The notes: a model not told the origin generated them from the letters alone. Numbered from the stretch's first letter, positions 3,901 to 63,061 are shown. The stretch: DNA of 64,000 nt from Bdellovibrionales bacterium (GCA_965203875.1 OZ241914.1:1358039-1422038), one strand, 5' to 3'. A program made the numbers and translations.

Positions 3901-4346
3901 TCTTTGCCACAGGTTAAAAAATTACTTACAACTTCCCCTCTCATGCCACCTGTTAGACATATCAAATCTTTGGAATATTTTTGCAAAGTTTCATAGTCGA
4001 TCCTAGGTTTATAATAAAACCCTTCTCTATAACCAGTGGTGCTTATCTTACATAGCTCCTGATATCCTTCATAACTTTTAGCAAGCAAAACTAATCTGGT
4101 ATTAGTTTTATTTTTTTTATTAAAACGACCATCAACTGCGATATATACGTCCATGCCTATTATTGGCTTAATCCCATGCTTTTTACATGAGTTATACCAA
4201 TCAATCACGCCAAACATATTTCCGTTGTCAGTAATGGCAGCTGCCGGCATTTTGTATTTCTCACATAATTCTATTAGATCAGAAACTCTGCAACTACTCT
4301 CTAATAATGAATAATGTGTATGTGTGTGCAGGTGTACAAAACTCAT
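912..4346 (-). CDS. dnaE: DNA polymerase III alpha subunit
   Basis: 1144 aa. N-terminal PHP domain (FVHLHTHTHYSLLES), a polymerase core (GRGSGAGSLVAYSL, PDFDIDF) and a C-terminal OB region, with full-length DnaE architecture. Confidence 0.97.
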   Translation of the reverse strand: MSFVHLHTHTHYSLLESSCRVSDLIELCEKYKMPAAAITDNGNMFGVIDWYNSCKKHGIKPIIGMDVYIAVDGRFNKKNKTNTRLVLLAKSYEGYQELCKISTTGYREGFYYKPRIDYETLQKYSKDLICLTGGMRGEVVSNFLTCGKDRALERIDFLKSVYHDNIFLEMQNISPENKKINEFLFEASESKKVPLVATNDVYFTSREDHLARDVLCCIGTNRTLDDRDSRFGISKENYFKSPDEMKKLFSDFPKATDNSLKIANMCNFEIEFLNKDGSIKYNMPTFKVSGKSTMYEALKKCAYEGLEKRFVEAENLHEKVNNKDIYYERMDSELKIINSTGFVGYFLIVQDFINWAKQNNIPVGPGRGSGAGSLVAYSLMITDLDPIKHDLIFERFLNSQRVSIPDFDIDFCRKRRSEVIEYVVNKYGSDRVSQIMTYGKLQARAAIRDVGRVLSMEYADVDDVARLIPEELGITISSALEKEPRLVEMMEEDPKINQLINTALQIEGLNRHVSVHAAGIIISNISLFDHAPLYKGKEGETIIQYDMRSSESMGLVKFDFLGLKTLTYINRTFELIKKHKGKDITTKDISLHDEGIYKMISSGSTAGIFQFESAGITELILRVKPTSFDDITAINALYRPGPMRMLDEYISRKHDNRKIKYMFKELEDILKSTYGIIVYQEQVQLIAYKIANYSLGEADILRRAMGKKNKRDMQIQKKRFINGALQNGYNKQLSEELFDLMARFAEYGFNKSHAAAYCVITAQTAWLKKYYPLEFYTALLSAELGNISKIIYYIRDAKQNGITIKPPCINKSEYDFSIVDNEIYFGLGAIKMVGKYLADKIVETREKLKLGRFNDVMEFFEKVDPQVMNKKSIEQLILSGSFDCFDTPRDELMDSYTHIMSRADKKMKDRQVGQGNLFDGENTSDAVVAKEKDSQRWSRLDTLLKEKNSLGFFFTDHPLKGFEKILKRFAKDDISKLNSSNNSSVRIGGIITNVNERVTRKAKVMAFVSVEDLTGTTEVVVFSNLYSEIKDKLKDDSIVFFESHTDDEGVTSKVIADKFYTLDQVLSDTSGLCLNVDAKDSTKFVEIREILKKHKGSKQVVFRLSLHGQTVDVVSNNPAGVDTNKELINELFAYIPRLGAIDVF

Positions 4347-4347
4347 A

Positions 4348-5832
4348 TCACTCCCACTCTATAGTACTTGGTGGTTTGGATGTTACGTCGTATAAAACCC
4401 TGTTGATGCCAGGTACATTATTTACTATTAGGTTAGAAACTTTTTTCATAAATTTGGGATCAAATTCATACCAATCAGCAGTCATGCCATCATCGGATAC
4501 AACAGCTCTGATACAAATAGTATACTCATACGATCTTTTATCGCCCTGAACTCCCACTGTTTTGACAGGAATCAAAACACAAAAAGCTTGCCATATTTTA
4601 TCATATAAACCATCTTTTTTAAGTGCATCTATAAAAACTTTATCTGCTCTTTTTAAAATAGATAATTTTTCATAAGTCACTTCACCTGGTATTCTTACAG
4701 CAAGGCCGGGGCCAGGAAATGGATGCCTTTTTAATATCCAGTTAGGTATACCAAGTGTAAGACCCAGTTTACGCACTTCATCTTTAAACAAAGATTTTAG
4801 TGGCTCAAGTAAGTTGATACCTAAAACTTTAGGCAAACCTCCTACATTATGGTGGCTTTTTATAACTGCACCACCACTTTCTATTACGTCAGGATATAAT
4901 GTTCCCTGAGACAACCATTTATAGTGTCTGTCTTTTGTAAAATTCTTAAAAGTGTCAATAAAAGTTTTGCCTATTATTTTTCTCTTTTCTTCTGGATCAG
5001 TTACACCTCTAAGAGCTTGAATAAAATCTTTCTTTGCATCTATCACGTGAATATCTATTTTTAGCTTCTTATAAATGTCTACAACTTCTTCCGGCTCACC
5101 TTCTCTTAAAAGGCCATTATCTACAAATACAAAGGATACTTGGTTACCTAACTTTTTTTTAAGTACACATGCAGTGACAGTGGAATCAACGCCACCGCTC
5201 ACCGCACACAGAACTTTGTCATCTAGTTTAACGGTCTGTTCTATTTTTTTATAAATATTTTGATTGATGTTTTGCTCTGGCTTTATTTTTGCTACTTCAA
5301 ATAAAAAATACTTTAGTACCTCAGAACCATATTCGGTGTGGGTAACTTCTGGATGAAATTGTACAGCCATAACCCTGCCATTTGTCATAGCAGCAATGAC
5401 TCCATCTTGACTTTTGGCAGAAACTTCAAAACCAGAGGGAATATTAATTACACTATCTCTGTGACTCATCCAAACATTATGTTCCTTTGGTACTCCCTTA
5501 GGCGGCTGAAGGTTCCAAATAATTCTTTGCATACCAAACTCTGAACTACCGCCAGTTTCAACCGAACCACCAAACTGCTTTGCTATCAAATGCATGCCAT
5601 AGCAAACTCCAAACACATAAGTACGTTTACACAATTCTTTTATGTCTATGGTTTTATCTAATAAAACACAACCAGGGCCTCCGCTTAATATAACTACCTC
5701 CGGTTTTAGTTTATCTAAAGTATTATCGGACCAGGAGTTATGATGAATAACCTCTGAATGCACCCCAAGCTGGCTAATTCTTCTGGATATTAGCCTGGTA
5801 TACTGAGACCCAAAATCTAAGACTAGAACCAA
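4348..5832 (-). CDS. guaA: GMP synthase (glutamine-hydrolysing)
   Basis: GATase-1 N-terminal domain plus an ATP-PPase P-loop (SGGVDSTV) and the typical C-terminal end ...PPSTIEWE. TTG start preceded by GGAGG. Confidence 0.95.
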   Translation of the reverse strand: MVLVLDFGSQYTRLISRRISQLGVHSEVIHHNSWSDNTLDKLKPEVVILSGGPGCVLLDKTIDIKELCKRTYVFGVCYGMHLIAKQFGGSVETGGSSEFGMQRIIWNLQPPKGVPKEHNVWMSHRDSVINIPSGFEVSAKSQDGVIAAMTNGRVMAVQFHPEVTHTEYGSEVLKYFLFEVAKIKPEQNINQNIYKKIEQTVKLDDKVLCAVSGGVDSTVTACVLKKKLGNQVSFVFVDNGLLREGEPEEVVDIYKKLKIDIHVIDAKKDFIQALRGVTDPEEKRKIIGKTFIDTFKNFTKDRHYKWLSQGTLYPDVIESGGAVIKSHHNVGGLPKVLGINLLEPLKSLFKDEVRKLGLTLGIPNWILKRHPFPGPGLAVRIPGEVTYEKLSILKRADKVFIDALKKDGLYDKIWQAFCVLIPVKTVGVQGDKRSYEYTICIRAVVSDDGMTADWYEFDPKFMKKVSNLIVNNVPGINRVLYDVTSKPPSTIEWE

Positions 5833-18838: not shown

Positions 18839-20125
18839 TTAAGGGTAATTTCGCCCGTACATCCGGGCAAATGGTATGGTTTCTCTAACGTGTGACAGGC
18901 CGCAAATCCATGCAACCGTACGCTCTATACCCAAGCCAAAGCCAGATGAAACAAATGATCCGTACTTTCTTAAATCTATGTACCAAGCAAAATGTTTTAA
19001 ACTTAGTTTATGATCTTTTATACTTTTTAATAAAACATCCAGATCGTCTTCTCTTTGACTACCCCCAAGTAGTTCTCCATAACCTTCTGGTGCTATTAGA
19101 TCACAGTTTTTGGTTTCTTTCTTGGATAAATCTTTTTTCATATAAAATGGAGTTATATTAGAAGGGTAGTTGTGTATGAATACGGGTTTTCCAAAATACT
19201 CCCCTATTAAAGTTTCGTCCTTTGCACCAAATCTACTGCCGGGCTTAAATTCAGGCAGTTTGTCTTGTATAATCTCGCAAGCTCTTTTATATGAAACCCT
19301 TTCAAAGTCAGCATTTAAATAATTTTGTAAGTTATCGGTATTTCGCTCTAGAACAGCCAGTTCCTTATCACAAGATTGTAGAACTTTTTTAAGTATGTGC
19401 TTTAGCATTGTTTCTGCCAGGTCCATATTGCCTATGTGATCTAAAAATGCTACTTCTGGTTCTAGCATCCAAAATTCTATCAAATGTCTTCTGGTCTTGG
19501 ATTTTTCAGCTCTAAAGGTGGGTCCTAGGCAGTACACTTTACCAAACGCTGCGGCGGCTGCTTCCATGTATAGTTGTCCGCTTTGGGACAGATAAGATTC
19601 TTCATCGAAGTATTGGGTTTTGAATAACTCTGAAGTACCTTCGCATGCATTTGGTGTAAATATAGGTGCATCTACGAGCGTGAAATGTCTGCCATTGAAA
19701 AATTCTCTGATTGCAGAAACTACACAAGCTCTTACTTTGATTATGGAGTGTTGTCTTTTTGATCTAAGCCATAGGTGTCTATGGTCCATCAAAAACTCAA
19801 CTCCATGTTCTTTGGGTGTTATTGGGTAATCTTTTGTTATGCTGAGTATATCTAGTTTGGTGACAGAAAGCTCAAAATCTCCTGGAGATCTTTTATCCTC
19901 TTTGACTATTCCAGTAACTTTTACTGTGGATTCTTGGGTTAGCTCCTGAAATTTATCGAAGTTGGCTTGACTGCAGTTGGTGGCCAAAAATACGCACTGG
20001 CATATTCCGGTTCCATCTCGAAGGAGCAAAAACCGTATTTTCCCTGAAGATCTCAAGGAATACACCCACCCATGTAGTGCTATTTCCTTGTCTTTGTAAT
20101 TTCCCAGCTCGTTTATATAGACCAC
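18839..20125 (-). CDS. asnS: Asparagine--tRNA ligase
   Basis: 428 aa, class IIb. It has an OB-fold N-terminus and motif 2/3 regions ([31 protein letters not shown]). Confidence 0.92.
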
Positions 20126-20303: not shown

Positions 20304-21893
20304 TTGAAGGTGTATAAATTTTATTTATTGATAGTATTTGTTTTAGGTTCAGCTGGGTTTTTGCATGCTGCAGATCCTAACAAGGAAAATTGCCAAACAG
20401 ACGACAGTGTAATTGTCAATGTAGCTTTGCTTGAAGCTGCAAAAGACGGAGATCTGGATTGTGTCGATAGGTTTACTGAGCCTGATTTTGATGTAAATAT
20501 GACAGGCAAAAGAGGTGAGTACGCAGATAAAACTCCTCTAATGGTTGCTGCTATGTCTGGCAAAATTGAAGTGGTGAGATTTTTGCATGAAAAAAGAGAT
20601 GACCTGGATGTAGATAAAGTTGATGGTGAGGATAAAACCGCTCTATTTTTAGCAGTTGAGGAAGGCCACAGAGAAATAGCTACTTTCCTAGCACCTCTTA
20701 GTGAAGATATAAATAAAAGGTATGGTTCAATAGAAGTTACGGTTCTTCATCATGCCATAGGTAGTGGGGATACCCAGCTTGCTTCTTATTTTCTTGGTAA
20801 TAAAGGCATAGATATCAATGCTCAAAATAAGGATGGGGATACTCCTTTGATGTGGGCTGCTGCTCGTGGTCAGGTAGAAATAGTGCACAAAATTTTAAAT
20901 AATAGAAGTGTCGATATAGGATTAGAGAATAATAGAGGTTTAACAGCTAGATATATGATTAGCACATATAATGTTGAGAGTATGAGAAACAGGCAAGCTA
21001 TATTAGATATGTTTAACCAATATGAAGGTGCGGTGGAAAAATTAGCTGTTGAAGCAGAATTTATAACAGCGGCAAAACAGGGTAACCTATCGAGGGTTCA
21101 GAGTATTTTTGCTGCAAAACAGGCAGAATTCGATATTAACAAAAAAGAATCCTTGGAAGGAAGTACGGCTTTAATATCGGCTATAGCTTGGGAGCGTCCT
21201 AACACAGCTAGATGGTTACTTGCTCAGTCAGGAATAGACGTAAATCTGGCTGATAATAGAGGAAACACTCCTTTAATGCATGCGGTGATAGTTCAGAACG
21301 AGGAATTGTTTTTTGAAATTGTACATAGAGAAGATATTAAAGTACACCACAAAAACCAAGAAGGCTTAGCTGCCATAGATATTGCAGAAAAGAAAAATAA
21401 TTCTAGAATAGTCACATTATTAAGAGACAAAATCGATAGAGATAATGCCAAGTTATTTCGTGCAGTAGAACGTGGTAACGTAGTTTCAATAGCCAATGCA
21501 TTAGACACTGGTATAGATATAAACGCCAGAAAAAATGACGGAGCAGGTAAGACCGCTCTGATTACAGCAGCAGGTTCAAGTTACAGTAAATCAAATACTA
21601 CAGTGCTTAATACCCTGCTTGCAAAATCTGGTATAGATGTAAATAAGCAATCTAATGGAGGTGTTACTCCAATCATGGCTGCGGTGTCGCAAGGTAATGA
21701 GGCAGCGGCAAATATGCTTCTTAGGGTGGAAGGAATAGATCTAAGTTTAAAAAATAACCAAGGTGAGACTGTGTTTGATTTGGCACAAAAGAGTGCAGTG
21801 CCTGGTATAGTTACCGCTTTTGAAGAGAGAAGCCAGAGTAAAGGTTTTAGCTTAAGAGGTGTTAGATCATTTTTCAAAGGGTTGTTTAAGTAA
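20304..21893 (+). CDS. Secreted ankyrin-repeat protein
   Basis: The N-terminus has a signal peptide (LLIVFVLGSAGFLHA/ADP). At least 10 ANK-type repeats follow (e.g. GDTPLMWAAARGQVEIVHKIL, GNTPLMHAVIVQNEELF, GVTPIMAAVSQGNEAAANMLL). The start may be the GTG at 20310, which is better spaced from AAGGAGG than the TTG at 20304. Confidence 0.88.
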   Translation: MKVYKFYLLIVFVLGSAGFLHAADPNKENCQTDDSVIVNVALLEAAKDGDLDCVDRFTEPDFDVNMTGKRGEYADKTPLMVAAMSGKIEVVRFLHEKRDDLDVDKVDGEDKTALFLAVEEGHREIATFLAPLSEDINKRYGSIEVTVLHHAIGSGDTQLASYFLGNKGIDINAQNKDGDTPLMWAAARGQVEIVHKILNNRSVDIGLENNRGLTARYMISTYNVESMRNRQAILDMFNQYEGAVEKLAVEAEFITAAKQGNLSRVQSIFAAKQAEFDINKKESLEGSTALISAIAWERPNTARWLLAQSGIDVNLADNRGNTPLMHAVIVQNEELFFEIVHREDIKVHHKNQEGLAAIDIAEKKNNSRIVTLLRDKIDRDNAKLFRAVERGNVVSIANALDTGIDINARKNDGAGKTALITAAGSSYSKSNTTVLNTLLAKSGIDVNKQSNGGVTPIMAAVSQGNEAAANMLLRVEGIDLSLKNNQGETVFDLAQKSAVPGIVTAFEERSQSKGFSLRGVRSFFKGLFK

Positions 21894-22140
21894 AGGTCTT
21901 CAATTAATAAGGCCCTTCGTTTTTGAATTAAAGGTCTTCAATTCTATCAAATACTTGCTAGTGTAGTGGAAAGACCGGAGGTCTTGTAGCGGAACTAGGC
22001 AAGGATTTGATAGAATGTTGCCCAACGTTCAAGGTATATTACGAAAGCTTTTGTTCATAGCAGAAAGATCAGGCCGAAAGTGGAGCCAAGGGGCATTTAT
22101 TAAAAAAGCCAAAGCAACGTTCAAAGTATATTCCAAACAA
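21891..22140 (+). repeat. SR-1 structured intergenic repeat array (partial flank plus two units), starting on the ankyrin gene's TAA stop
   Basis: TAAaggtcttcaatt at 21891. A full unit spans 21930-22048 (aaaggtcttcaatt / ctatcaaatacttgc / core with aagacc-gga-ggtctt / gcaaggatttgataga / atgttgcccaacgttcaaggtatatt). A second, flank-less unit runs to about 22140. Confidence 0.85.
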
Positions 22141-22170
22141 ATTTTCTAAGATCCAAAGTTTTTAATATAA

Positions 22171-22252
22171 CAAATCTAAGCATAGAGCTTGCCGAGGTAC
22201 GCTGCTCCCCAGAGCAGCTTGAAAGCCTCTCTAAGCTCTATGCTTAGATTTG
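22171..22252. repeat. SR-2 element: a 42-bp conserved core flanked by perfect 20-bp inverted repeats
   Basis: caaatctaagcatagagctt (22171-22190) and aagctctatgcttagatttg (22233-22252) are exact reverse complements. The core is gccgaggtacgctgctc-ccca-gagcagcttgaaagcctctct. Confidence 0.9.
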
Positions 22253-22394
22253 TTTAAACTCTCCCTCTTATAAGCAGTAAATTGTGAATACTTAATACAT
22301 ATAAATACTACATTTTTATAGTGAAATTGAATTTTTTAACTAAATTATAAACAAATATGCTAATATCACTCTCTAAAGAAGCAACACGATATCC

Positions 22395-25298
22395 ATGAAA
22401 CTCAAGTTTATTAGACATATTAAAAAAGCAAGTACTTTTAAGAAAGTTGTTAAGACAAAAGTACTTTTATTTTCTGTAACATCATTTTTTATAACATTTG
22501 GTGTACTTAGTGTTTTTACTTACGCTAAAGCTCAAACTACTTCCTACACAGAGCCTAGCTTGGATGATCTAAGATTAGCTAATAAAGCTGTCTCCTCTTG
22601 CAGAGTCTTACAAGATGTTATTAGTGAAAATAGTCAGGTTGAAGACATCCCAGCTACTAAAGTTTTTGTTGAACTACAAAGAACAGAAGATGGGGATCTT
22701 CTAATAGACGATGAAGCTTGTAGAGAAAGTATTTTAGAGTTTGTTAAAAGTTTATGCACTTCTAGTTCTTCTAAGAACAATCTTTATTGTGAAAGATTAG
22801 GGATTAAGAAAAGTGAAAGTACTTTCGACTCAAATGAAGGTGCTAATACTAGTACTAATGATAATACTAATGGTAATGAAGTTGATCGTATAAGCGACTA
22901 TAAAAAAAGCGATTATAAGAAATTTGGTCAGTCGGCTATAGATAATTTAGGTATAGATCTATCAGACGATATAAGTTTTGAATCAAGTTTAGATGAAAAA
23001 GATCAACGGGAAGAAAGTAAGCTTAAGTTTTTGGCAGCTGGTACATTATTTTCTTTAAGTCCTGTAAAAAAGCTTAGAGTTGCTTCATTCGTTGGTAAGA
23101 ACTTAGCTATTAGAATAAAACCTGTTCTTAACGGAGCATTGTTAGTATTGGCTACCCTAGGTTTATCGTCTTGTAATGATGCTACAGGTCCTGAGCCAGT
23201 TAAACCTCCAACTGTAGTAGATACTCCTTGTACTAGAAGAGAAAGTGGTTATTTTCAATTATCAGGTGCTAATGTTGCTTGTATAAAGCTTCCTACCCTA
23301 ACTTATTCTTTTTTAACTAGCACAGGCGAAGAATCGGATTCTTCAAACGGTGATCCGGACACTACAATAAGAATAAAGTTTGATTCAGAAGTTGTTTTTA
23401 TAGACAACAACGAATGGCAAGAACTAACTCCAGAAAATGTCTTACAAATGCTGGAAATTAAAAAAAATAACACAGAAACTGATCTTACAACCCCAGAAGG
23501 CTCTATAAATCAGGATAACATATCCATAACCACAGAAAGCTCTAATACAGTTATAACTATAAAACCTCCAAATAGTTCTAATGGCAAAATCTATCATGCT
23601 GGGGAGTATTCTATGTTAACCAAAAACTATGCTCCAAAGACAGATGCTTCAAAAGTACAACAAAGTACTAATATAAATACTTATCTTGAAAGTATAAAAG
23701 AAGAATCCTCATTTAGTGTTACTGGCAATAATCCATGTGTTAGAGGCGAAACAGGTTACTTTTATTTTAGAGATTCTAACAACATGGCTAGATGTGAAAA
23801 CCTAATACCTAATATAAGTTATACTTTTAGTAAAAATAATGATCCTCAAGCTATCCTAAACATAAGCTTTGATTCTGATGTTGTGTACATAGACAACAAC
23901 GGTTGGTCTGAAATAGATAACAACAATATTTTAGACATGCTAGCCATCAATCCTGTTGATACTGGTACTGATGTTGATTATACGATTTATACTGGCGATT
24001 TATTAGTAGAAGATGGTCCTATTGATCAGGAACAAATCACCGTAACCAAAACAAATACTGGCATCACCATTGAAATAGATCCTCCTAACACTGGGTTGCA
24101 TTGGCGCAAGGTACATAAAATTGGGTTGTATCAAGCTGGTAACTACATGCTTTCTGCTAGTAATTATATTAGAAGATCAGATATTGATATAGTGATTCAA
24201 AACAACGCACTGGATGATTATCTAGATGCCGCAAAAGGTAGTAGTGGTACAGAGTTTTCTATTGATGCTGTCTCTAACTTATCCTGTGGATCAGAAACAT
24301 TTCAAGGTTATATGCCTACAACATCTATTGAAGACGAACACCAAGAGCCATCTTTTTGTGGAGCCTATGTGCATGAACTTCCACCTGAATTAGCTATAGC
24401 AGCACATCACCATTATCAACCCAGAAGAGCTGATCCTAATACAACCTATGTAATAGATATTGGCTTTGTAATGTCCGAAAGATATTCTACACCTGGTTGG
24501 GATGATTTTATAACGAACCATGTGCTTACTCATGTGAATGATATTTATCAAAGATCAGGAGTTAACGTAGAATTTAGAGCTAAAAGTGTTGTACCTTTTC
24601 AAGATTATAGGCACTATATACGCTGTCAGATTGATGCTCTAGATTTAAATAATAGATATGCTATATCCCGTGTTAATTTTGATTTGATTTCTATAATACG
24701 AAAGAATCATGGAGTTGATCTGATTTATACAATACAAAATTTTGAAGAAGAGACAAGAATTGCTGGGTTTGCTTCTGTTCGATTTAATGATCATTCATTG
24801 GAGGAAGCCAGAATATATGCCACTAGTGGTACGGTAGATCCTGGTTCTCATAACAAAGAAATACCTGACATGTTTGATCAACAGTACAGATTCATACATG
24901 TCCTAACACATGAACTGGGCCATAACCTAGGATTACTTCATAACAAGGAAGATTATGAAACATTCCCTGTTGAGAGCATTTTTCATCCTAAAGGGTATGG
25001 ATATATAGGGTCAGCTAATGCAATAGACGGACAAGCTTTAAGATATGGAACAGTGATGTCGATTCGTATAGACGACGTGCCTTTTTTCAGTGCTAATAAA
25101 GTGGTAACAAAAGAGGAATTATGTATAGACGAAGACAGGTACGACAATAAACTTGGCGGTGGATTTTGTACAGCCAGTTACGATAAACTAGCTGATGAAC
25201 AGCTTCGTTTAGGTGATGAGCAAGCAGACGCTTCGGAGGCTTTGCAGTACACAATAGAGGATGCCTCTAAGTATCACTGTGGTTCAGGATCATGTTAG
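22395..25298 (+). CDS. Multidomain metzincin zinc metalloprotease (reprolysin/ADAM-like catalytic motif) with an internal lipobox-like segment
   Basis: 967 aa. The order is a signal peptide (..FTYAKA/QT), a 4-Cys N-domain, then a hydrophobic stretch ending LATLGLSSC (Cys260). Two modules of about 175 aa follow. The C-terminal domain carries HELGHNLGLLH (HExxHxxGxxH) and a downstream YGTVMS (candidate Met-turn). Confidence 0.85.
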   Translation: MKLKFIRHIKKASTFKKVVKTKVLLFSVTSFFITFGVLSVFTYAKAQTTSYTEPSLDDLRLANKAVSSCRVLQDVISENSQVEDIPATKVFVELQRTEDGDLLIDDEACRESILEFVKSLCTSSSSKNNLYCERLGIKKSESTFDSNEGANTSTNDNTNGNEVDRISDYKKSDYKKFGQSAIDNLGIDLSDDISFESSLDEKDQREESKLKFLAAGTLFSLSPVKKLRVASFVGKNLAIRIKPVLNGALLVLATLGLSSCNDATGPEPVKPPTVVDTPCTRRESGYFQLSGANVACIKLPTLTYSFLTSTGEESDSSNGDPDTTIRIKFDSEVVFIDNNEWQELTPENVLQMLEIKKNNTETDLTTPEGSINQDNISITTESSNTVITIKPPNSSNGKIYHAGEYSMLTKNYAPKTDASKVQQSTNINTYLESIKEESSFSVTGNNPCVRGETGYFYFRDSNNMARCENLIPNISYTFSKNNDPQAILNISFDSDVVYIDNNGWSEIDNNNILDMLAINPVDTGTDVDYTIYTGDLLVEDGPIDQEQITVTKTNTGITIEIDPPNTGLHWRKVHKIGLYQAGNYMLSASNYIRRSDIDIVIQNNALDDYLDAAKGSSGTEFSIDAVSNLSCGSETFQGYMPTTSIEDEHQEPSFCGAYVHELPPELAIAAHHHYQPRRADPNTTYVIDIGFVMSERYSTPGWDDFITNHVLTHVNDIYQRSGVNVEFRAKSVVPFQDYRHYIRCQIDALDLNNRYAISRVNFDLISIIRKNHGVDLIYTIQNFEEETRIAGFASVRFNDHSLEEARIYATSGTVDPGSHNKEIPDMFDQQYRFIHVLTHELGHNLGLLHNKEDYETFPVESIFHPKGYGYIGSANAIDGQALRYGTVMSIRIDDVPFFSANKVVTKEELCIDEDRYDNKLGGGFCTASYDKLADEQLRLGDEQADASEALQYTIEDASKYHCGSGSC
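24909..24941 (+). other. Metzincin zinc-binding motif HELGHNLGLLH
   Basis: Codons cat gaa ctg ggc cat aac cta gga tta ctt cat, read directly from the sequence. Confidence 0.9.
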
Positions 25299-25327
25299 GT
25301 TAAGGTGATCAAGTTTTTATCCATCTA

Positions 25328-28300
25328 CTAATAACAGGTGCCTGTCTGTTGGTGACAACGGTTGTAGTCTGTCCACCAACAGTCACTATTTCTATCACAA
25401 CTAGCAGAAATTCCACAAGTTTTTCTTCCATATGAGATTCCACTATGGCATTGACCTTGGCCTCTACATCTTGTTCCACCTGTGCATCGACCACTTCTGC
25501 AATATGCACCACATGTATTTTTATCATCTGAGTCACAGATTACTCCTCCACTGTAGCAGGTTCCAGCTGCTGTATTATTATGAGTTCTGTATCCACAATT
25601 TTTATTCCCAACTTCACTTCGATAGTTTCTATTAACGTCTTGACAAGTCTCTGGGTCATCAGAATCAGTCCAACAAGTTTTTACACCACACACACTTGTT
25701 GAAGTACTGCCACTACCTTGATTTGTGGTATTTGGATGAGTACTTGGACAAGATACTTCACTTGATGTTTTAGCTACACGTGTACCGCATTGATCAGGAT
25801 TACACTTATAACAATCATTTGGGATGCAGGTAGGACCACTTCCATTCCAGCATGTTTTTACACCACATACTAGCGGTGTTTTTTTAGTACTCTTACAAGT
25901 TTGTTTTGAAGTATATGGATGAGTACTTGGACAAGATACTTCACTTGCTGTTTTAGCTACACGTGTACCGCATTGATCAGGATTACACTTATAACAATCA
26001 TTTGGGATGCAGGTAGGACCGCTTCCATTCCAGCATGTTTTTACACCACATACTCTGGTTGAACGACTATTACAAGTTTGTTGTGAAGTATTTGGATGAG
26101 TACTTGGACAAGATACTTCACGTGCTGTTTTAGCTACACAACTGTTACCACTACATTTTTGACAAGGATTGCAATCACACCGGGGAGGATCTACACAACT
26201 ACCACTTCCATTACAAACTTTGCCACCAGTACATTTGCTAGTTGGTGATCCACATCCATCAGAAGGACATTTCTTGCATGCATTTCTATCTTCAGTAGTT
26301 AAAGTACAAGGTGTCCCATTATTACAGCTTCCATTCACACAGAGGTTACATGTACCAGTACAATCTGAGGGTCCGCTACACTGAGGAGGATCTACACACC
26401 TACCACTTCCATTACAAATTTTGTTAAGAGCAATGCATCTATTAGTTGGTGAACCACATCCGTTAGAAGGACATACCATACAATTATTAGTGTCTGCTGT
26501 GCAGTAATCGGTACCTCCACGATAGCAAGTTTCTGGGTCAGGGTCTGGGTCAGATAATGTGCTGTCATCGTTACCAGTGCTATCATCTACGCCGCTATCA
26601 TCACCAGTATTTCCACCGCCTCCAGTGGATTTACACTTGTAACAATATGTATCGCATACACCGATAGCTTCAGGAGTTTTACCATCATCAGTACAGGCTG
26701 ATGAACTACTTTCTTTATGAGTAGGATGATTTGAGCAGTTTACAGCTTGAGCTATGCACTTACCTCCAACACACTCTTGGCAGGAGTTACAATCTGAAGG
26801 ACCACTACAGGAATGTTGACTTACACATCGATCTGCCAGACTTGTATCTGCTGAACAAACTTTTCCAAGTGCTGCACAAGCAGCATTATCGCAGGCACAA
26901 CCATTATTTACGCAAATATTACCAGGATTACAGCAAATAGCATTATTACGACAACTAGCATGATTAGCTGGACATTCACAACGGCCAGTAGCACTATTAC
27001 ACCTCTGAATACCAGTGCATGTTACCCCAGCACATGGATCCGTTGTAGTAGTCGTAGAGAAAATAAGTGCATCTTCTTGAGGCGATGGAGAGTAGTTACC
27101 ATACTCGTCCACTAACCTAAGCTCTATACTATACTCAATACTAGAATCAGGTGCAGGCAACTCAGTAAATCTTAAATGTAACTCCCTATCTTTACTACGA
27201 TCACCACCTTCAGGATCACTAGGATCACTCGCATATAGCTGGGCAGTCACAGGATGTGTATCATCACCAATAGTAAAGGAACTACCAGATAAATCATCAC
27301 ATAAAAACCAATCTCCAACTGGATGATCTATACCACTAATCTTTTTGTTCAAACGACATAAAAATACTCCCTTACTAAAACTGGAATTTAAACAATATCC
27401 TGCATCATTACCATCTGGACACCTATAACCCCTATCCCATACACGACCTTCTAGCTTAAACCTACATGTCGTAGAATTATCAGAATTTGTAGTACATTGA
27501 AGGGTAGTGGTCGTTGTTGAAGTTGATGAACTGTCTGAAGAATCAGCCTCAGAATTAGACACAGAAGATAGAGATATTGTAGATGGATTATGCTTATTAT
27601 TAGCTTTATTAGCCAGATTACTAACTAAGTTGTTACTAACTAACTTGTTGTTATTAGCTTTGCTACTAACTAACTTGTTGTTATTTTTGTTACTAGCTAA
27701 ATTAGCTTGAAAGCTATTATCAGGTGGTTGAGTCGTAGTAACTGAAGTAGTCTTTACTATTGTCTTATTGCGTGCTGTTACATACCTCTGAGAATAAGAA
27801 AATACCTTCTCAGCTCTGCATCTGATAGGATCATAACTAGATACTGCCTTCCTCTCCTCAACCTCCACAAATAACTTAAATCCAAGATCATGACGAATAT
27901 TAGCCTCAGGCAAACCTGATAAACTAGAAGCAAGCTTATAACCTAACTTACTCTTATCTGAATTCTCAGGTTTATCATAAACAGAACGAGGACGAACAAA
28001 AATAGGATGTATAGCCTTACTCTTATGCCTGTTACAACTATCTGTCTTCTCATTCTTGCTTATATCCCAAGGCCTTATACCAATACGAACATCATACTTA
28101 GACTTAGCTATGTAATTACTTACAGGAGTATAACTACTCACAGGCTCAACTGGACCAAAGGATAAGGACGATATATCAGATAAACGCTCACTTAACAAAA
28201 ATAACGACTCTCCGGTCAACCTATCCCACTTATATCCATCTGAAGATGAACCATTGTTGTCTGCTAGCCCTTGATGAGCTGTCCGTTTATCTTCATCCTT

Positions 28301-28510
28301 AAGCTTACGATATTTATTAGGATTCTCTTCAACCCACTTGTCTAAATCACCTAACTTTATCAAAGGAGCAGAAGACTCATGAGACTTAAACTCCATCTTC
28401 ACTAGATCAAAAGTCAAAGCTGAACTGTTACTAATTTGAGCATCTGATGGACATATAGAAATAGGATTAGTAGAAGATGTCTTTAAATACTTATTATACA
28501 AGTCCTCCAA
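25328..28510 (-). CDS. Giant Cys-rich / EGF-like repeat surface protein body, probably the 3' part of a phase-variable fusion with the pilin-like ORF upstream
   Basis: The ORF-track start is a TTG with no signal peptide. The same frame is actually open from 28684, so it runs through the G13 tract. The C-terminal 560 aa are dominated by Cys-rich modules (DPCAGVTCTGIQRCNSATGRCEC; CPSxGCGSPTxxC..CNGSGxCVDPPxC; three copies of VAKTxxEVSCPSTHP..CGVKTCWNGSGPTCIPNDCYKCNPDQCGTR). Confidence 0.8.
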   Translation of the reverse strand: MEDLYNKYLKTSSTNPISICPSDAQISNSSALTFDLVKMEFKSHESSAPLIKLGDLDKWVEENPNKYRKLKDEDKRTAHQGLADNNGSSSDGYKWDRLTGESLFLLSERLSDISSLSFGPVEPVSSYTPVSNYIAKSKYDVRIGIRPWDISKNEKTDSCNRHKSKAIHPIFVRPRSVYDKPENSDKSKLGYKLASSLSGLPEANIRHDLGFKLFVEVEERKAVSSYDPIRCRAEKVFSYSQRYVTARNKTIVKTTSVTTTQPPDNSFQANLASNKNNNKLVSSKANNNKLVSNNLVSNLANKANNKHNPSTISLSSVSNSEADSSDSSSTSTTTTTLQCTTNSDNSTTCRFKLEGRVWDRGYRCPDGNDAGYCLNSSFSKGVFLCRLNKKISGIDHPVGDWFLCDDLSGSSFTIGDDTHPVTAQLYASDPSDPEGGDRSKDRELHLRFTELPAPDSSIEYSIELRLVDEYGNYSPSPQEDALIFSTTTTTDPCAGVTCTGIQRCNSATGRCECPANHASCRNNAICCNPGNICVNNGCACDNAACAALGKVCSADTSLADRCVSQHSCSGPSDCNSCQECVGGKCIAQAVNCSNHPTHKESSSSACTDDGKTPEAIGVCDTYCYKCKSTGGGGNTGDDSGVDDSTGNDDSTLSDPDPDPETCYRGGTDYCTADTNNCMVCPSNGCGSPTNRCIALNKICNGSGRCVDPPQCSGPSDCTGTCNLCVNGSCNNGTPCTLTTEDRNACKKCPSDGCGSPTSKCTGGKVCNGSGSCVDPPRCDCNPCQKCSGNSCVAKTAREVSCPSTHPNTSQQTCNSRSTRVCGVKTCWNGSGPTCIPNDCYKCNPDQCGTRVAKTASEVSCPSTHPYTSKQTCKSTKKTPLVCGVKTCWNGSGPTCIPNDCYKCNPDQCGTRVAKTSSEVSCPSTHPNTTNQGSGSTSTSVCGVKTCWTDSDDPETCQDVNRNYRSEVGNKNCGYRTHNNTAAGTCYSGGVICDSDDKNTCGAYCRSGRCTGGTRCRGQGQCHSGISYGRKTCGISASCDRNSDCWWTDYNRCHQQTGTCY
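25690..26150 (-). repeat. In-gene tandem repeat, period 183/177 bp, about 3 copies
   Basis: tacttggacaagatacttcac recurs at 25741, 25924 and 26101. Copies 1 and 2 are nearly identical over more than 120 bp (ttttagctacacgtgtaccgcattgatcaggattacacttataacaatcatttgggatgcaggtaggacc...). Boundaries are approximate. Confidence 0.9.
27596..27705 (-). repeat. Short in-gene tandem / low-complexity repeat encoding N/K/L/V/S-rich peptide
   Basis: ctaactaacttgttgttatt occurs twice among related ttagc/ttact units. The encoded peptide is NNNKLVSSKANNNKLVSNNLVSNLANKANNK. Confidence 0.7.
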
Positions 28511-28598
28511 AACTCCAACATCTGAACCATCATATAACCTATCTAAATGTAAAGTAACTCCACTAGATGAAGCACTTAATGGAGAATCTACAGAAGTA

Positions 28599-28889
28599 TT
28601 ATGACCAATCTTGCTTAAATTTTGGTCGCCCCCCCCCCCCCAAATTTTGGGTAGTAGAGGTAGTAGAAACAGTAGATATAGTAGCTACTTCTTTCTTAGG
28701 AGAAACCTTACTGCCATTCTTAGAAAAATGAGCCAATACATTACCAGCTACAGATGAACACATATAAGTATCATGCTTCCTCTGAGTTAAAGTCATCATA
28801 TTAGCCGACATAAACGTAACCACAAAACCTGTAGCTGATACCAACGCCAATCCTATCAATGTCTCCAACATCGTAAATCCCCCAGTCTT
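28599..28889 (-). CDS. Prepilin-type N-terminal (cleavage/methylation-like) domain ORF, truncated by frame at a G13 tract
   Basis: It encodes ..KTGGFTMLETLIGLALVSATGFVV.., a close match to the type IV pilin/pseudopilin G/FTLxE plus hydrophobic-helix signature. The only canonical start nearby is the ATG at 28871 (the M of FTMLE), preceded by GGGGGA. No start exists for a normal short leader. The ORF stops 8 codons after the G tract. Confidence 0.6.
   Translation of the reverse strand, partial: KTGGFTMLETLIGLALVSATGFVVTFMSANMMTLTQRKHDTYMCSSVAGNVLAHFSKNGSKVSPKKEVATISTVSTTSTTQNLGGGGRPKFKQDWS
28629..28641 (-). repeat. Homopolymeric tract: C13 on the plus strand, G13 on the coding strand
   Basis: Counted directly: ...ggtcg cc cccccccccc c aaatt... 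It sits exactly at the junction of the two overlapping reading frames. Confidence 0.95.
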
Positions 28890-29222
28890 GCGACTGGACG
28901 CATTTGCTGGCTTACAGCCAGCCGCTTGAACAAAAGCTAACAGTAAACTACGAAAACCTATTGTTCGATAACAACTTTCAGTTGGAGGCTTTTGCAACCT
29001 AACGGCTGCAGAACTTCGGAGTAACCAAGTTTTTCGTGATTCACATAAGCTTTTGAACCATCCATGGCGACTGGACGCATTTGCTGGCCAACCTACGGTT
29101 GGATCAGTTTGCTGGCCTTCGGCCAGCCTCTTAAACGAAAAATTAACTTGCGACTGCGGAGCTTTATAAAAACCAACCTTCGGCCCAATCAATCTGCCGG
29201 CTTTCAGCCGGCCCTTTAAAAG
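28890..29222. repeat. SR-3 cluster of REP-like short GC-rich hairpins
   Basis: gcgactggacgcatttgctgg occurs twice (28890, 29066). Hairpins present are gctggct-tac-agccagc, ccaacc-tac-ggttgg, gctggcc-ttc-ggccagc and gccggc-tttc-agccggc. The same family is found at 63706-63906. Confidence 0.85.
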
Positions 29223-29485
29223 AAAAGTATTTTTAAAACGAATAAATAAAGATCTTAAAAAAAACAAAATAAAAACCTAAAACTTAAAACCAAACTTACC
29301 AAACTCTAAATTCTACGACAAAAAACCCTTTTCACAAAGAAAAACAAAACTAAGTCCAGAAAAATACCCCTCACACACATATAAATTATCACATTGAGAC
29401 AGTACCTTCTGATACAGTACCTTTCATTTACAAAAAGGTAACCACGACATATTAAGCAGACTAAAATATGCAAGCTACAACAATA

Positions 29486-29565
29486 AAAGATGGGTGTATG
29501 GTTTAGAGAGGCTTTCAAGCTGCTCGAAAGAGCAGCGTACCTCGACAAACCATACACCCATCTTT
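29486..29565. repeat. SR-2 element (opposite orientation): a 42-bp conserved core flanked by perfect 19-bp inverted repeats
   Basis: aaagatgggtgtatggttt (29486-29504) and aaaccatacacccatcttt (29547-29565) are exact reverse complements. The reverse complement of the core is gtcgaggtacgctgctc-tttc-gagcagcttgaaagcctctct. This nearly matches the 22191-22232 core except for the loop. Confidence 0.9.
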
Positions 29566-29601
29566 GTTCTAGTAATAAACTTCCAAAAAATTTTTTGGAG
29601 T

Positions 29602-30102
29602 CTACCTTGATGATAAGCTGCTTTGGCATTTTACAAAGCTATCTTGGAAGCTACATAGTTTACGTGTTCTGCTCCCTTGATGAGTGGAGTCTTCATAGAA
29701 AAAACTTTTGTCATCTCTCCATCTGATATACTTTGTTATTGCCCCATGAGTGTTTATTTTTTGCCACGTTAGTATTTTTTTATCTTTTATGACTACAAAA
29801 TAAAGACTTCCCCACCAATTTCTATCATATTCCATATATACAACTTTTTGATTAGGTTTGTGGATATTTGTACAAACAGTAATATCAGGATTACTATATC
29901 TTCTAATATAACTGTCCTTTTGCCTTCTTGAAATAGACAAGTTATTGTAATGCGTACCTATCTCTTCTATAAACCTTTGTTTGAGTTTGCTTACAACGGT
30001 ACTATCTGTGTCTATGTTTTCTGACCTGCATATGGAAGATTTGGCTTCAACTATGTAAAACAAAAATAACATAATACATAAAATAAAATATTTTGGACCC
30101 AT
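29602..30102 (-). CDS. Small hypothetical secreted protein
   Basis: I prefer the internal ATG at 30102, giving MGPKYFILCIMLFLFYIVEA/KS, a plausible signal peptide. No family recognised. Confidence 0.5.
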   Translation of the reverse strand: MGPKYFILCIMLFLFYIVEAKSSICRSENIDTDSTVVSKLKQRFIEEIGTHYNNLSISRRQKDSYIRRYSNPDITVCTNIHKPNQKVVYMEYDRNWWGSLYFVVIKDKKILTWQKINTHGAITKYIRWRDDKSFFYEDSTHQGSRTRKLCSFQDSFVKCQSSLSSR

Positions 30103-30169
30103 AGATAATGTGAAATTATATAATATTTCTTTTGTGAGATGAATAAATAATATACGCATAAAATAAAGA

Positions 30170-30246
30170 TGGTGATTCGGCCAGGACTCGAACCTGGAAC
30201 CCTCTGCTTAGAAGGCAGATGCTCTATCCAATTGAGCTACCGAACC
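30170..30246 (-). tRNA. tRNA-Arg (anticodon TCT)
   Basis: The reverse complement is ggttcggtagctcaattggatagagcatctgccttctaagcagagggttccaggttcgagtcctggccgaatcacca. It forms a cloverleaf with a 7-bp acceptor stem, anticodon loop CT-TCT-AA, T-loop TTCGAGT and an encoded CCA. Confidence 0.95.
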
Positions 30247-30340: not shown

Positions 30341-31192
30341 ATGAAAGCCATAATTCCCGTTGCTGGTTTAGGGACTAGGCTTCTGCCTGCCAGTAAAAAC
30401 ATCCCAAAGGAAATGCTACCTATAGTAGACAAGCCGTCAATTCTTTATGTGGTTGATGAAGCGGTGGCAGCTGGAATTGATGTCATAATATTTGTGCAAG
30501 GCCGTGGTAAGCATTCCATAGAAGATCTGTTTGATGTATCGTTCGAGCTGGAACATAGTTTAAAAAGAGCAAAAAAACTTTCCTATTTAAAGACAATTCA
30601 GGATATTTACAACAAAGTTGATATTGTGTCAGTGAGGCAAAAAAAGCCCCTTGGACTAGGGCATGCTGTTTACTGTGCCAGGCCTGTGATTGGAAATGAG
30701 CCATTTGCCGTCCTACTGCCAGATGAAATAATGATCCAACATAACACAACCAAAGCACTCATTTCAGTGTATAAAAAATACGAACAGCATACAGTTTCAG
30801 TTTTAAAGGTAGATCCTTCTGAGACAAGCAAGTATGGAATTGCTGATGTCAAACCTTTTAAGGATGATTTATACAAGGTCACAAAGGTTGTCGAAAAACC
30901 TAAAGTTAGCAAAAGCAACTGGATTTTACCCGGCCGGTATGTTTTTACCAGTGAAGTATTTGATATTATAAATGACCTTCCTACCAATAATTCAGAAGAG
31001 ATTGGTTTGGCTGAAGCTTTAAATACTATAGCTCTTAGAAAGAATTTGATTGCACAAGAATGTAAAAGCCTAAGGTTTGATGTAGGTGATAAGTTAGGTT
31101 TTTTAAAGGCAAACATTAGAATGAGCCTGGAACATTCGGAGATTTCAGACGGTGTTAAAAATTATCTAAAAATCTTAACTGATAAATTATAA
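30341..31192 (+). CDS. galU: UTP--glucose-1-phosphate uridylyltransferase
   Basis: KAIIPVAGLGTRLLPASKNIPKEMLPIVDKP, 283 aa. Confidence 0.92.
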   Translation: MKAIIPVAGLGTRLLPASKNIPKEMLPIVDKPSILYVVDEAVAAGIDVIIFVQGRGKHSIEDLFDVSFELEHSLKRAKKLSYLKTIQDIYNKVDIVSVRQKKPLGLGHAVYCARPVIGNEPFAVLLPDEIMIQHNTTKALISVYKKYEQHTVSVLKVDPSETSKYGIADVKPFKDDLYKVTKVVEKPKVSKSNWILPGRYVFTSEVFDIINDLPTNNSEEIGLAEALNTIALRKNLIAQECKSLRFDVGDKLGFLKANIRMSLEHSEISDGVKNYLKILTDKL

Positions 31193-42484: not shown

Positions 42485-42722
42485 AGGTTTTCAATTTTTA
42501 ATAAGTGTACATAGCGAAACGGCCCGACTGTAGGTCAAAGTGTAGCTATGTATACTTATTAAAAATGTTTACCAGCTCTCAAGGTATACTCCAAAATATT
42601 TGCTAAAGGTCTTCAATTTTATCTAATATTTGATTAGCAAAGCGGTAAGCCAGAAAGCTTAAAGCGTAGCTAAGAAAATATTTGATAAAAAGTTGTGCAA
42701 CGTTCAAGGTATATTCCAAAAG
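42482..42722 (+). repeat. SR-1 structured intergenic repeat, two tandem units, starting on the activator's TAA stop
   Basis: Unit 1 (42482-42596): TAAaggttttcaattttt / aataagtgtacatagc / core / gctatgtatacttatt / aaaaatgtttaccagctctcaaggtatactcc. Unit 2 (42604-42722): aaaggtcttcaatttt / atctaatatttgattagc / core with taagc-cagaaa-gctta / gctaagaaaatatttgat / aaaaagttgtgcaacgttcaaggtatattcc. Confidence 0.9.
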
Positions 42723-61376: not shown

Positions 61377-62612
61377 TTATGTAGATGGACCGCATCGTGT
61401 AGACTCCACATGAAAGTAAGCATGCGATAGTGTCTCTGCTAACAGATCTCCACCACTGTCTTCATTACCACTTCCACCGTCGCCACTGTCCTTTATAAAT
61501 TGGTAAGCCAATGGTGCATCCTTTGAATATACATAGTTTTCAAATTCAATTCTATAACTACTATCTGTTCTATACATATCCTCTGGAGGCTTTATCCTAA
61601 TATAAGAATTGTTATTAATATCAGTACCGGCAGTAATTTTATTTAACGTTATATCACTACCTAATAAGTTATTGTCACTAAGCTCACAATCTGAATAATC
61701 ATCACTACTATCATCGTCACAGTTTTCGATCCTTCTAATGTCCACCATATCCAGTACACGCATAACAGAAATTGGTGCATGTCCTCTTTTATCTATATAA
61801 CTAACCAACCCATCAAAAGTAATTATAATTTCAGTACATGGGTTTACACTCATTACACCGTCAGTTTGATTCTTAAATCGTTTGCCACCAACTAAAAACT
61901 CCAGCTCTGCTGTTGGAAGTTTTATGCATGCAACCTCTTCTTTAGCACTACCTTCTTCTCCGTCGCTACCTTCTTCTTGCCTGGTCAACAAAATGTAACC
62001 GCTGTCCCCTCTATTACAAATTTGCTCAGGACCTGTAATATTATCACACGAAGCCAAACCCATAGTGGCAAGTATCAACATTGCACCACTTAAAACGGGT
62101 TTTACAAACTTAAAACCCCTAACAGGCGTGAAAAAAAGCAAAGAGCTAGCAACAGAAAATGAAAATTCTTTCTTACTACTAACATCTTGGTCCCAATCAT
62201 AAGAATCTAAATTTGAAATAGCAGACTTGCCAAAAGACTTATAGTTGCTGTCTTGAAGTATTCCCAATTTACTACAGTACAGTTGGTTTTGATAAGAAAC
62301 AGAAGAGCACAATGAATACACAAAATCTAGTATGGTATCCACACACTGCGTGTTCTCTATTAATAAATTTCCATCTTGGTCTGTTGCTTGTAATGCATCT
62401 AATATATCTTGCGATGGAACACTAGTATTGTGTGTAATCGAGTTTGCAACATCATTTAAAACTCCACATTGTGATAAGGCATCATGTAACAATTCTAAGT
62501 CTTGCTCACTAGGGGTGGTGTAACTTTCCATCCCTTGATCCAGGAAACTGTCCTGTGCATTTGCAAAAATTGAAAATAGAAAAGTTAATAAATATACCTT
62601 AAAGGCTCTCAA
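61377..62612 (-). CDS. Paralogue of the N-terminal two-thirds of 22395..25298 (signal peptide, 4-Cys domain, internal lipobox-like segment, one ~175-aa module; no protease domain)
   Basis: Collinear similarity to 22395..25298: SQCGVLNDV/SSCRVLQDV, LLIENTQCVDTILDFVYSLC/LLIDDEACRESILEFVKSLC, NQLYCSKLGI/NNLYCERLGI, KPVLSGAMLILATMGLASCDNITGPE/KPVLNGALLVLATLGLSSCNDATGPE and VACIKLPT. TTG start after GGAGGG. Confidence 0.8.
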   Translation of the reverse strand: MRAFKVYLLTFLFSIFANAQDSFLDQGMESYTTPSEQDLELLHDALSQCGVLNDVANSITHNTSVPSQDILDALQATDQDGNLLIENTQCVDTILDFVYSLCSSVSYQNQLYCSKLGILQDSNYKSFGKSAISNLDSYDWDQDVSSKKEFSFSVASSLLFFTPVRGFKFVKPVLSGAMLILATMGLASCDNITGPEQICNRGDSGYILLTRQEEGSDGEEGSAKEEVACIKLPTAELEFLVGGKRFKNQTDGVMSVNPCTEIIITFDGLVSYIDKRGHAPISVMRVLDMVDIRRIENCDDDSSDDYSDCELSDNNLLGSDITLNKITAGTDINNNSYIRIKPPEDMYRTDSSYRIEFENYVYSKDAPLAYQFIKDSGDGGSGNEDSGGDLLAETLSHAYFHVESTRCGPST

Positions 62613-62714: not shown

Positions 62715-63061
62715 AAGGTCTAATCAAGAATTTGACAAAAGAAAACCCTTAGGGCATCTTTTTAGAATATACTTTGAGAACTGGTAAACATTTTATCAAA
62801 CAATAGCCTAGCTTCACTTTCGGCCTTTGGCCTTTCGCTACGCTTTAAGACAATGCTTTTATAGTGTACCTTGAACGAACGTTGCTTTGGCACTTTTAAT
62901 AAGCACACACTAGCTCCACTTTGACCTACGGTCGGGTCGTTATGCTCTGAACAAAAGCTTTCGGAATATACTTTGAACGTTGCACAAGGCCACAGCCTTT
63001 CAGAGCAGCAAAGCCACTCTTGCAGGCTGCGGCTCAAGGGCCTGATAATTGAAAACCCTTA
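62715..63061 (-). repeat. SR-1 array (about 3 units, rearranged), minus orientation, downstream of hsp20
   Basis: The reverse complement contains aagggttttcaatt..., three right flanks (caacgttcaaagtatattcc, caacgttcgttcaaggtacac, cagttctcaaagtatattc) and cores with gacc..ggtc and ggcc-aaa-ggcc. Confidence 0.8.

Follow-up and report, generated by a model that had tools for sequence, protein, structure and literature searches.

A dispersed gene pair of a poly-G-interrupted giant with pilin-like N-terminus and an adamalysin-like metzincin: a probable phase-variable adhesin family in a Bdellovibrionales genome

We analyzed a stretch of 64,000 nucleotides (nt) from a Bdellovibrionales bacterium (GCA_965203875.1, OZ241914.1:1358039-1422038), hereafter called the window, and within it the interval between asnS and the gene for tRNA-Arg(tct) (positions 20,304 to 30,246; Table 1). 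A preliminary description, made from the sequence alone, had taken this interval for a horizontally acquired or fast-evolving module of eukaryote-like surface proteins. We read it as a native, fast-evolving "plasticity" stretch, whose core of about 22.3–29.5 kb would be one copy of a dispersed gene pair. The first gene codes for a giant Cys-rich protein and is interrupted by a run of 13 guanines behind a pilin-like N-terminus, the second for an adamalysin-like metzincin. On balance it is probable that the giants of this Bdellovibrionota-like genome are a family of adhesins of the modular-pilin type that is phase-variable and recombining and has proteases as partners. The prepilin-type N-terminus, the frame split at G13 and the multi-copy nature of the pair go beyond what had been described before.

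The tract of 13 guanines on the coding strand of the giant gene is the sole run of nine or more G or C in the 64-kb window. As sequenced, it separates the frame of the pilin N-terminus from that of the body, while G12 or G15 would join them. If one G is dropped, the stub open reading frame (ORF) reads through into the body ORF without meeting a stop codon at the junction, and from the tract on the body frame is open for 1099 codons. We compared tract lengths among the five copies of the close clade with available DNA, counting the window and its ortholog from a second strain (locus L001) separately. The tracts were G13 in the window, G11 in L001, G9 in L082, G14 in L083 and G14 in L085, only G9 being in frame. 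In the out-of-frame copies 1018–1110 codons are open directly after the tract. Other assemblies contribute six clusters of "stub" ORFs, of which four terminate immediately behind GG/GGG(G). As far as can be judged from sequence, the giant locus shows the features by which homopolymer contingency loci are classically recognized; for Neisseria pilC genic G(9-20) tracts have been reported (PMC5953494). A distant homologue at locus L084 (P0012) shows no G tract at the equivalent site. At L084 3978-3986 a C9 run is found about 155 nt upstream of the pilin start of P0012, which could act as a promoter-level switch.

The giant protein of about 1190 amino acids (aa) opens with the prepilin-type motif G/FTMLETLIGLALVS, where the slash marks the predicted cleavage site. 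Class III signal peptides are characterized by a small residue (Gly) at position -1, Phe or Met at +1, Glu at +5, about 21 hydrophobic residues and an alpha1 helix of about 50 residues (PMC8179133). The sequence RKTGG/FTMLE at 28880-28863 shows this pattern with Gly at -1, Phe at +1 and Glu at +5. It is followed, within FTMLETLIGLALVSATGFVVT, by a hydrophobic tract of 21 residues, and AlphaFold2 (AF2) predicts a helix over residues 3–54 of the segment at low confidence. P0004, P0008, P0012 and P0038-43 carry this motif as well, and in the first three of these the pilin N-terminus continues uninterrupted into the body. G-F-T-x-x-E is kept down to P0012, which is only 29% identical and for which a GTG start codon yields the nine-residue leader in MVNTSARKVG/FTLIE. 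Ahead of G-1, the residues N-[AT]-S-[AS]-R-[KR] have been retained at the amino acid level in different clades. Two family members, P0008 and P0012, score 16.7 and 16.9 with TIGR02532 (cut-off 16.3), and the remaining weak matches to this profile are almost all pilins or pseudopilins (GspI, PilV, ComGD/E/F). A reconstruction of 1191 aa had also assumed an extra G in an upstream G5 run, giving an ATG start; this assumption was later set aside. The respective second frameshift, an extra G in CTGGGGGATTT leading to the leader MRPVARLGG/FTMLE, was rejected since the ATG is absent in L083 and since the in-frame N-A-S-S-R-K is conserved as amino acids.

In the leader region the stems of the GC-rich hairpins are constant and their loops vary with no compensatory changes, so that a role as RNA structure is not claimed. 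The 177-nt segment bracketed by the 22-nt direct repeat is found in the window, L001 and L083, is missing from L085 and is differently deleted in L082.

The giants constitute an orphan protein family. A word-index search of 5.8e9 clustered proteins returned 12 relatives, six of them on one 1.6-Mb contig on which the window's own proteins are also recorded; the other relatives are located on European Nucleotide Archive (ENA) contigs. An exhaustive HMMER profile search of 1.84e9 representatives found nine proteins, namely three of full length and six stubs of 140–209 aa, and a scan of Joint Genome Institute (JGI) metagenomes with the N-terminal profile detected no relative. At the nt level, paralogues agree to 91–97% across the 5' 2.1–2.7 kb, about 900 nt of upstream sequence included. 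Mosaics are seen in the 3' halves, whose cassettes are common piecemeal to paralogues: residues 556–640 of the window giant are identical only to P0008 and residues 780–930 to P0002/P0003, and residues 946–1057 match no paralogue. Body columns are also invariant in the distant homologues P0012 and P0037.

The preliminary description had ascribed EGF-like repeats to the convergent giant. Its Cys-rich half is indeed present, whereas its EGF-like identity is not supported at the profile level: no Pfam family was detected at E<=10 and no NCBIfam family at E<=0.01, and a six-Cys spacing compatible with EGF occurs in just two stretches of this half. The idea that the vocabulary of ADAM proteins is split over two adjacent genes depends on this EGF-likeness and is not backed by hidden Markov models (HMMs). 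Genes for disulfide-forming enzymes were noticed near other giant copies, a DsbA-like gene directly upstream of one (L083 7967-8434) and a DsbD gene near another (L082 19384-21024). Such neighbours fit the need of Cys-rich proteins for disulfide formation.

The metzincin, in agreement with the preliminary description, carries the extended motif HELGHNLGLLH and the Met-turn candidate YGTVMSI, and Reprolysin_3 scores over its cut-off. From the N-terminus it comprises a signal peptide, a small helical domain, a disordered linker, the LATLGLSSC segment, two beta-rich repeats and the catalytic domain. In an alignment of 22 metzincin homologues G842, L845, G846, L847, T886 and M888 are almost invariant. 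The AF2 model calculated from these homologues has a predicted local distance difference test (pLDDT) score of 80–94 across both beta-rich repeats and the catalytic domain. Searching the PDB with Foldseek gave as top match CpaA of Acinetobacter (6o38, E 2.8e-9), followed by ADAM8 (1e-6), snake-venom metalloproteinases/adamalysins, ADAM33, TACE and ADAMTS. CpaA is an adamalysin-like O-glycoprotease with Ig-like repeats that is secreted by the type II secretion system (T2SS) (PDB 6O38; PMC7542363, PMC6299215). A phmmer search against PDB sequences gave no match, and the fold search alone was informative here. Neither the metzincin nor the neighbouring giant contains a disintegrin, ADAM Cys-rich or EGF domain of Pfam, even at E<=10. 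The designation "ADAM-type metzincin" thus holds for the catalytic fold, which is adamalysin/reprolysin-like according to Pfam and the predicted structure.

The metzincins are a lineage-restricted family with 21 matches, at least eight of them on one 1.24-Mb contig. Members possess one to five beta-rich repeats, and HExxH is lost in some paralogues. About 250 aa past the signal peptide a lipobox-like L-[AS]-S-C closes an internal hydrophobic helix; it is kept in the 22 homologues, with L252, A253, T254, L255, G256 and S259 invariant or nearly so. At 61377-62612 (-) a secreted protein of 411 aa is encoded that shares 32% identity with the N-terminal ~350 residues of the metzincin; it has a signal peptide, a helical domain, an LILATMGLASC segment and one PC..GYF beta repeat. 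Since this protein lacks a catalytic domain, the N-terminal module of the metzincin is a family of its own. Two further homopolymer tracts may exist. In L086, where two metzincin paralogues stand in tandem, the orphan ORF of 290 aa downstream of them includes a G9 (19008-19016), and P0033, a metzincin paralogue on the 1.6-Mb contig, contains a GGGGGGG peptide run.

A metzincin paralogue adjoins the giant at all five giant loci, if the orthologs of the window and L001 are taken as one. Orientation is convergent in the window/L001, L082 and L083 and co-directional in L085; in L084 convergent metzincin fragments stand beside the 29%-identical homologue. The pair is multi-copy, and its other chromosomal sites are not beside tRNA genes. 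We infer that the metzincin is a partner of the giant rather than a chance neighbour.

These observations would fit the following mechanism. The first gene would encode a protein of about 1,190 aa composed of the class III motif (G/FTMLE) with its hydrophobic helix, a conserved body of ~500 aa, Ser/Thr/Asn-rich linkers and Cys-rich cassettes. About 85 codons past the pilin N-terminus the poly-G tract would decide on the product: if its length is divisible by three the full protein would result, otherwise a stub of about 90 aa. Slipped-strand mispairing could turn each paralogue ON or OFF independently, and recombination between the near-identical 5' halves could reshuffle the 3' cassettes. The changing adhesin tips would be presented, probably on a type IV filament, to the surfaces of prey or host. 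In Bdellovibrio, type IV pili are required for prey entry. The CpaA-like metzincin encoded by the second gene may work together with the giant, either in processing or shedding at the Ser/Thr-rich linkers or on the same target surface. Processing or shedding appears reasonable because CpaA is an O-glycoprotease and the giants carry mucin-like Ser/Thr runs. In a more specific version, the bacterium would recognize its prey or host by self-diversifying giant pilus-tip adhesins, each switched stochastically by poly-G, re-tipped by cassettes from paralogues and accompanied by a co-evolving adamalysin-like (glyco)protease of its own which releases or remodels it at the mucin-like linkers. We regard this version as rather unlikely in its entirety; if true, the pair of adhesin and protease would mirror the ADAM sheddase–adhesin logic in a bacterium by means of an orphan family.

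To judge the origin of the interval we compared gene order with the one usable second strain (L001); the genome sequence covered comprises about 190 kb of about 1.6 Mb. Gene order is the same in both strains. The tRNA, galU and SpoIID genes are 99.5–100% identical (tRNA and galU alone 99.9–100%) and the ankyrin protein 100%, while amino acid identity is 92% for the metzincin and 77% for the giant. One 3' segment of the giant is without any match in the second strain, and the spacer at 29301-29601, upstream of the giant promoter, is 84% identical. Conservation differs sharply by feature, and the interval is read as native, yet with hot spots of recombination and mutation. As to the surface or interaction module proposed before, fast evolution is supported and horizontal acquisition is not. 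The location between housekeeping genes and beside the 3' end of tRNA-Arg(TCT), the accessory content and a tetranucleotide z of about 4 at 24–29 kb would suit an acquired island with eukaryote-like effector genes, but we consider this very unlikely. As had already been stated, no integrase is evident: block ORFs of at least 100 aa contain neither integrase nor recombinase, and the 3' end of tRNA-Arg(tct) has no second copy (attachment site, att) in the window. GC content overlaps between block (0.32–0.42) and flanks (0.31–0.41). Tetranucleotide usage is backbone-like over the ankyrin and metzincin genes and deviates only over the Cys/Ser/Thr-rich gene. Moreover, giant/metzincin units recur at non-tRNA sites and are lineage-restricted, with no outside donor detected. 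The preliminary description had named synteny and backbone-like composition in related genomes, or failing domain assignments, as evidence to the contrary; part of this was found, namely the same order in one second strain, a mostly backbone-like composition and the failure of the EGF assignment.

Several observations weigh against phase-variable modular-pilin adhesins. The AF2 model of the giant's N-terminal 601 aa, based on a six-sequence alignment, is unusable (pLDDT 34). Some metzincin paralogues stand without giants, and both adhesion and the protease–adhesin link are argued from architecture and adjacency. Among the window ORFs scanned, part of about 190 kb accessible of the ~1.6-Mb genome, none codes for a prepilin peptidase or filament assembly protein. 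Furthermore, all tract lengths are values from metagenome assemblies, probably of long reads, in which homopolymers are error-prone, and ON/OFF calls may be wrong for this reason. In ERZ25067941 contig_1 (L083), dnaB appears as three ORFs and ftsK as four (297-1699; 2268-4435), with one break at an A-rich run; these splits are due to assembly indels or gene decay and bear on the trust in that assembly's tract lengths. The genes might accordingly be intact and constitutive, coding for ordinary large surface proteins that do not switch, with the frameshifts as mere homopolymer miscalls. The Flye/metaMDBG-style names of the contigs and the freedom of OFF copies from other lesions are in line with this. 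We still hold it to be unlikely: over a 12.5-kb flank two assemblies differ by 81 substitutions and four indel events, none of the latter in homopolymers, which indicates a low indel error. In addition, the tract site is precisely where the frame is lost in four of five copies and in four independent stub clusters. Even if miscalled, an in-frame G9–G14 is intrinsically hypermutable, with the G9–20 tracts of Neisseria as precedent (PMC5953494). Alternatively, the genome may be shrinking and losing the family, with the out-of-frame copies as decaying pseudogenes; the small genome of ~1.6 Mb, the fact that most copies are split and the loss of HExxH in some metzincins speak for this. We give this the least credence of all, since split copies are broken only at the tract with more than 1000 intact codons downstream, the 91–97% identity of the 5' halves argues for ongoing gene conversion, and the promoter-like site is conserved. 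Finally, the N-terminus might not be a prepilin at all. Translation could start with ATG/TTG at +3 (MLETLIG), a purine-rich GGGGGA lying 6 nt ahead of the ATG; the hydrophobic segment would then simply anchor a surface protein unrelated to type IV filaments in the membrane, or be its signal left uncleaved. In the window clade the 38 codons ahead of G-1 include no ATG, GTG or TTG; the frame upstream of the pilin site nonetheless has no stop for about 130 codons and passes three GC-rich hairpins (28881-29267). With 14.0 bits for TIGR02532 (cut-off 16.3) and 15.0 bits for PF07963 (cut-off 21.2), the window copy falls short of both thresholds. A non-prepilin appears quite improbable to us in view of the motif and GTG-started leader in the 29%-identical homologue, the two family members that reach the TIGR02532 cut-off, the other, weak matches being almost all pilins or pseudopilins, and the amino acid conservation ahead of G-1.

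Phase-variable modular-pilin adhesins would have parallels in several known systems. Modular type IV pilins have been described in Streptococcus sanguinis (PilB/PilC), enterotoxigenic Escherichia coli (CofB) and the T2SS (GspK) (PMC8179133). With about 1,100–1,700 aa the giants exceed the most repeat-rich case of that survey, which has 860 aa (PMC8179133). They further differ from modular pilins in that body and Cys-rich modules match no known domain and that they are multi-copy, mosaic and poly-G-gated, as well as only putative pilins. Similar to Neisseria pilC1/pilC2, which are pilus-associated adhesion genes, they have a G tract of at least nine in the 5' reading frame and copies that differ in length and frame (PMC5953494). 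Unlike pilC, there is no homology to PilC/PilY1 and the tract follows the pilin helix instead of lying in the signal-peptide region. The giant family also has at least six copies per genome, and its switching is deduced here from sequence.

Recombining surface families include Neisseria pilE/pilS, Mycoplasma vsp/vlp and the poly-G-containing pmp of Chlamydia pneumoniae. The giants have in common with them conserved 5' parts, variable 3' cassettes found piecemeal in several copies and fast divergence between near-identical strains. In contrast to these families, the alignable giant copies each seem to have a promoter-like site and full length, with no silent partial cassettes, and the sequences are unrelated. 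The metzincin resembles CpaA and the M12B proteins of the ADAM/snake-venom type in catalytic fold, HExxHxxGxxH plus Met-turn and tandem beta-rich repeats. It differs from them by a sequence identity of just 11–18%, by one to five repeats located before the catalytic domain and by an extra N-terminal module with the internal lipobox-like segment; there is no disintegrin, and no CpaB-like chaperone was seen. The MAT fibre proteins of Bdellovibrio bacteriovorus form a mosaic adhesin family for prey recognition (PMC10769870). Like these, the giants would be multi-copy surface adhesins of the same broad lineage with conserved stems and diversified chimeric tips, for which a broader target recognition is proposed. 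Unlike MAT proteins, to which no sequence relationship was found, they have a pilin-type rather than a phage-fibre-like trimer N-terminus, Cys-rich tips and a homopolymer switch. The giant locus is best read as combining known strategies, i.e. modular pilin, homopolymer switch, cassette recombination and partner protease, in an orphan family.

Little is settled about the way in which Bdellovibrio-like bacteria, predatory and host-associated ones, select their targets and keep hold of them, and the locus points to a testable answer in an uncultured branch. The giants would widen the concept of "modular pilins", since neither their size nor their copy number appears in the 2021 survey (PMC8179133). 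They would also be a rare example of contingency loci together with concerted evolution outside the classical pathogens. At the same time, the attractive annotation as a "eukaryote-like island" is corrected.

The host genome has a size of about 1.6 Mb and a GC content of 36% and contains many ankyrin genes. The presence of BamA, Lol and Mla genes identifies a diderm. In a DnaE search the best match outside the organism's own assemblies was 67% identical. Named matches, on which alone the placement of the lineage is based, were 49–50% identical and belonged nearly all to Bdellovibrionales, Bdellovibrio or Bdellovibrionia, one being labelled just Proteobacteria. For AsnS, the GTDB species representatives offer no close relative; the best are 50–57% identical, come from many phyla and have no common neighbours. 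The host is best read from these sequences as a deep Bdellovibrionota-like, genome-reduced lineage.

Table 1. Positions of genes, motifs and repeats in and around the interval (window coordinates)
Feature	Position	Strand	Remark
asnS	18839-20125	-	NF003037, 533 bits; left border of block
Ankyrin-repeat protein, 529 aa	20304-21893	+	Ank_2 2.9e-53, Ank_4 3.6e-49
Other small dispersed repeats	21881-22140		
Palindromic intergenic element, ~86 nt	22159-22254	.	inverted relative at 29486-29578
Adamalysin-like metzincin, 967 aa	22395-25298	+	Reprolysin_3 28.1 bits (cut-off 22.4)
Conserved hydrophobic LATLGLSSC segment of metzincin	23148-23174		aa 252-260
Two ~170-aa beta-rich repeats of metzincin	start 23226 and 23733		
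Zinc-binding motif HELGHNLGLLH	24909-24941	+	aa 839-849
Met-turn candidate YGTVMSI	25044-25064	+	aa 884-890
Convergent giant ORF, 1060 aa	25328-28510	-	no Pfam/NCBIfam match
Mosaic Cys-rich C-terminal half of giant	25328-27034	-	82 Cys in 568 aa
183-nt tandem repeats in Cys-rich half	25728-26139		
Conserved body of giant, ~530 aa with Asn/Ser/Thr-rich linkers	27035-28641	-	91-97% nt identity to paralogous loci
Poly-G tract, G13 on coding strand	28629-28641	-	sets frame between pilin N-terminus and body
ORF with pilin-like N-terminus, 222 aa	28599-29267	-	ends 9 codons past G13 tract
Pilin-like N-terminal segment	28599-28880	-	G(-1) codon 28880-28878, then FTMLETLIGLALVSATGFVVT; frame-shifted tail after GGGG
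Conserved 5' region of giant gene family	28881-29337	-	92-98% identical in L082, L083, L085
22-nt exact direct repeat	28890-28911 and 29067-29088		brackets in-frame 177-nt (59-codon) segment
GC-rich hairpins	28906-28922, 29111-29127, 29196-29212		
Promoter-like TTGTGA-16-TAGAAT	29337-29310	-	conserved in copies whose alignment extends there
Orphan ORF, 185 aa, hydrophobic N-terminus	29602-30159	-	no Pfam/NCBIfam match
tRNA-Arg(tct)	30170-30246	-	border of block
galU	30341-31192	+	beyond tRNA-Arg(tct)

Of the remaining genes of the interval, the ankyrin-repeat protein with signal peptide was confirmed: Ank_2, Ank_4, Ank, Ank_5 and Ank_3 all score well over the Pfam cut-offs, and the N-terminus, MKVYKFYLLIVFVLGSAGFLHA followed by ADP behind the presumed cleavage site, has the appearance of a Sec-type signal as judged by eye, without a predictor. 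The protein is one among many Ank genes of the genome, which form clusters at other loci, and stands outside the repeated module of giant and metzincin. At four of seven distinct loci examined, ankyrin genes lie just a few kb away from a metzincin or giant, e.g. L087 2836-7678 (five consecutive genes), L086 5650-6321 and L083 4837-5598. This placement suggests a clustering of accessory surface or effector genes. The small secreted protein reported earlier corresponds to the 185-aa ORF. Copies were not found at other loci. With 93.9% nt identity between strains, compared to at least 99.5% for the flanks, this ORF is hypervariable.

Several kinds of repeat elements are present as had been noted, though they are not specific to the block. 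Both L082 and L083 contain pieces related to the palindromic element, as do other parts of the window, and the hairpin and other intergenic motifs of the block likewise recur in other parts of the window and at other genome loci. The short repeats are dispersed genome-wide. The motif CAACGTTCAAGGTATATT is repeated in intergenic regions at 22023-22045, 22115-22137, 42697-42720 and 62943-62982 as well as in L082 and L083. At two of these sites the motif precedes a gene of the metzincin N-module family, namely the metzincin at 22395 and the ORF at 61377-62612, and it may be a regulatory or promoter element. The GCTGGC-N5-GCCAGC hairpin of the giant leader is also found at L082 22474-22490 and, within the window, at 63883-63899, where an Hsp20-like gene (63173-63649) lies downstream of it. 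With no occurrence expected by chance (0), it is a dispersed element resembling repetitive extragenic palindromes (REP).

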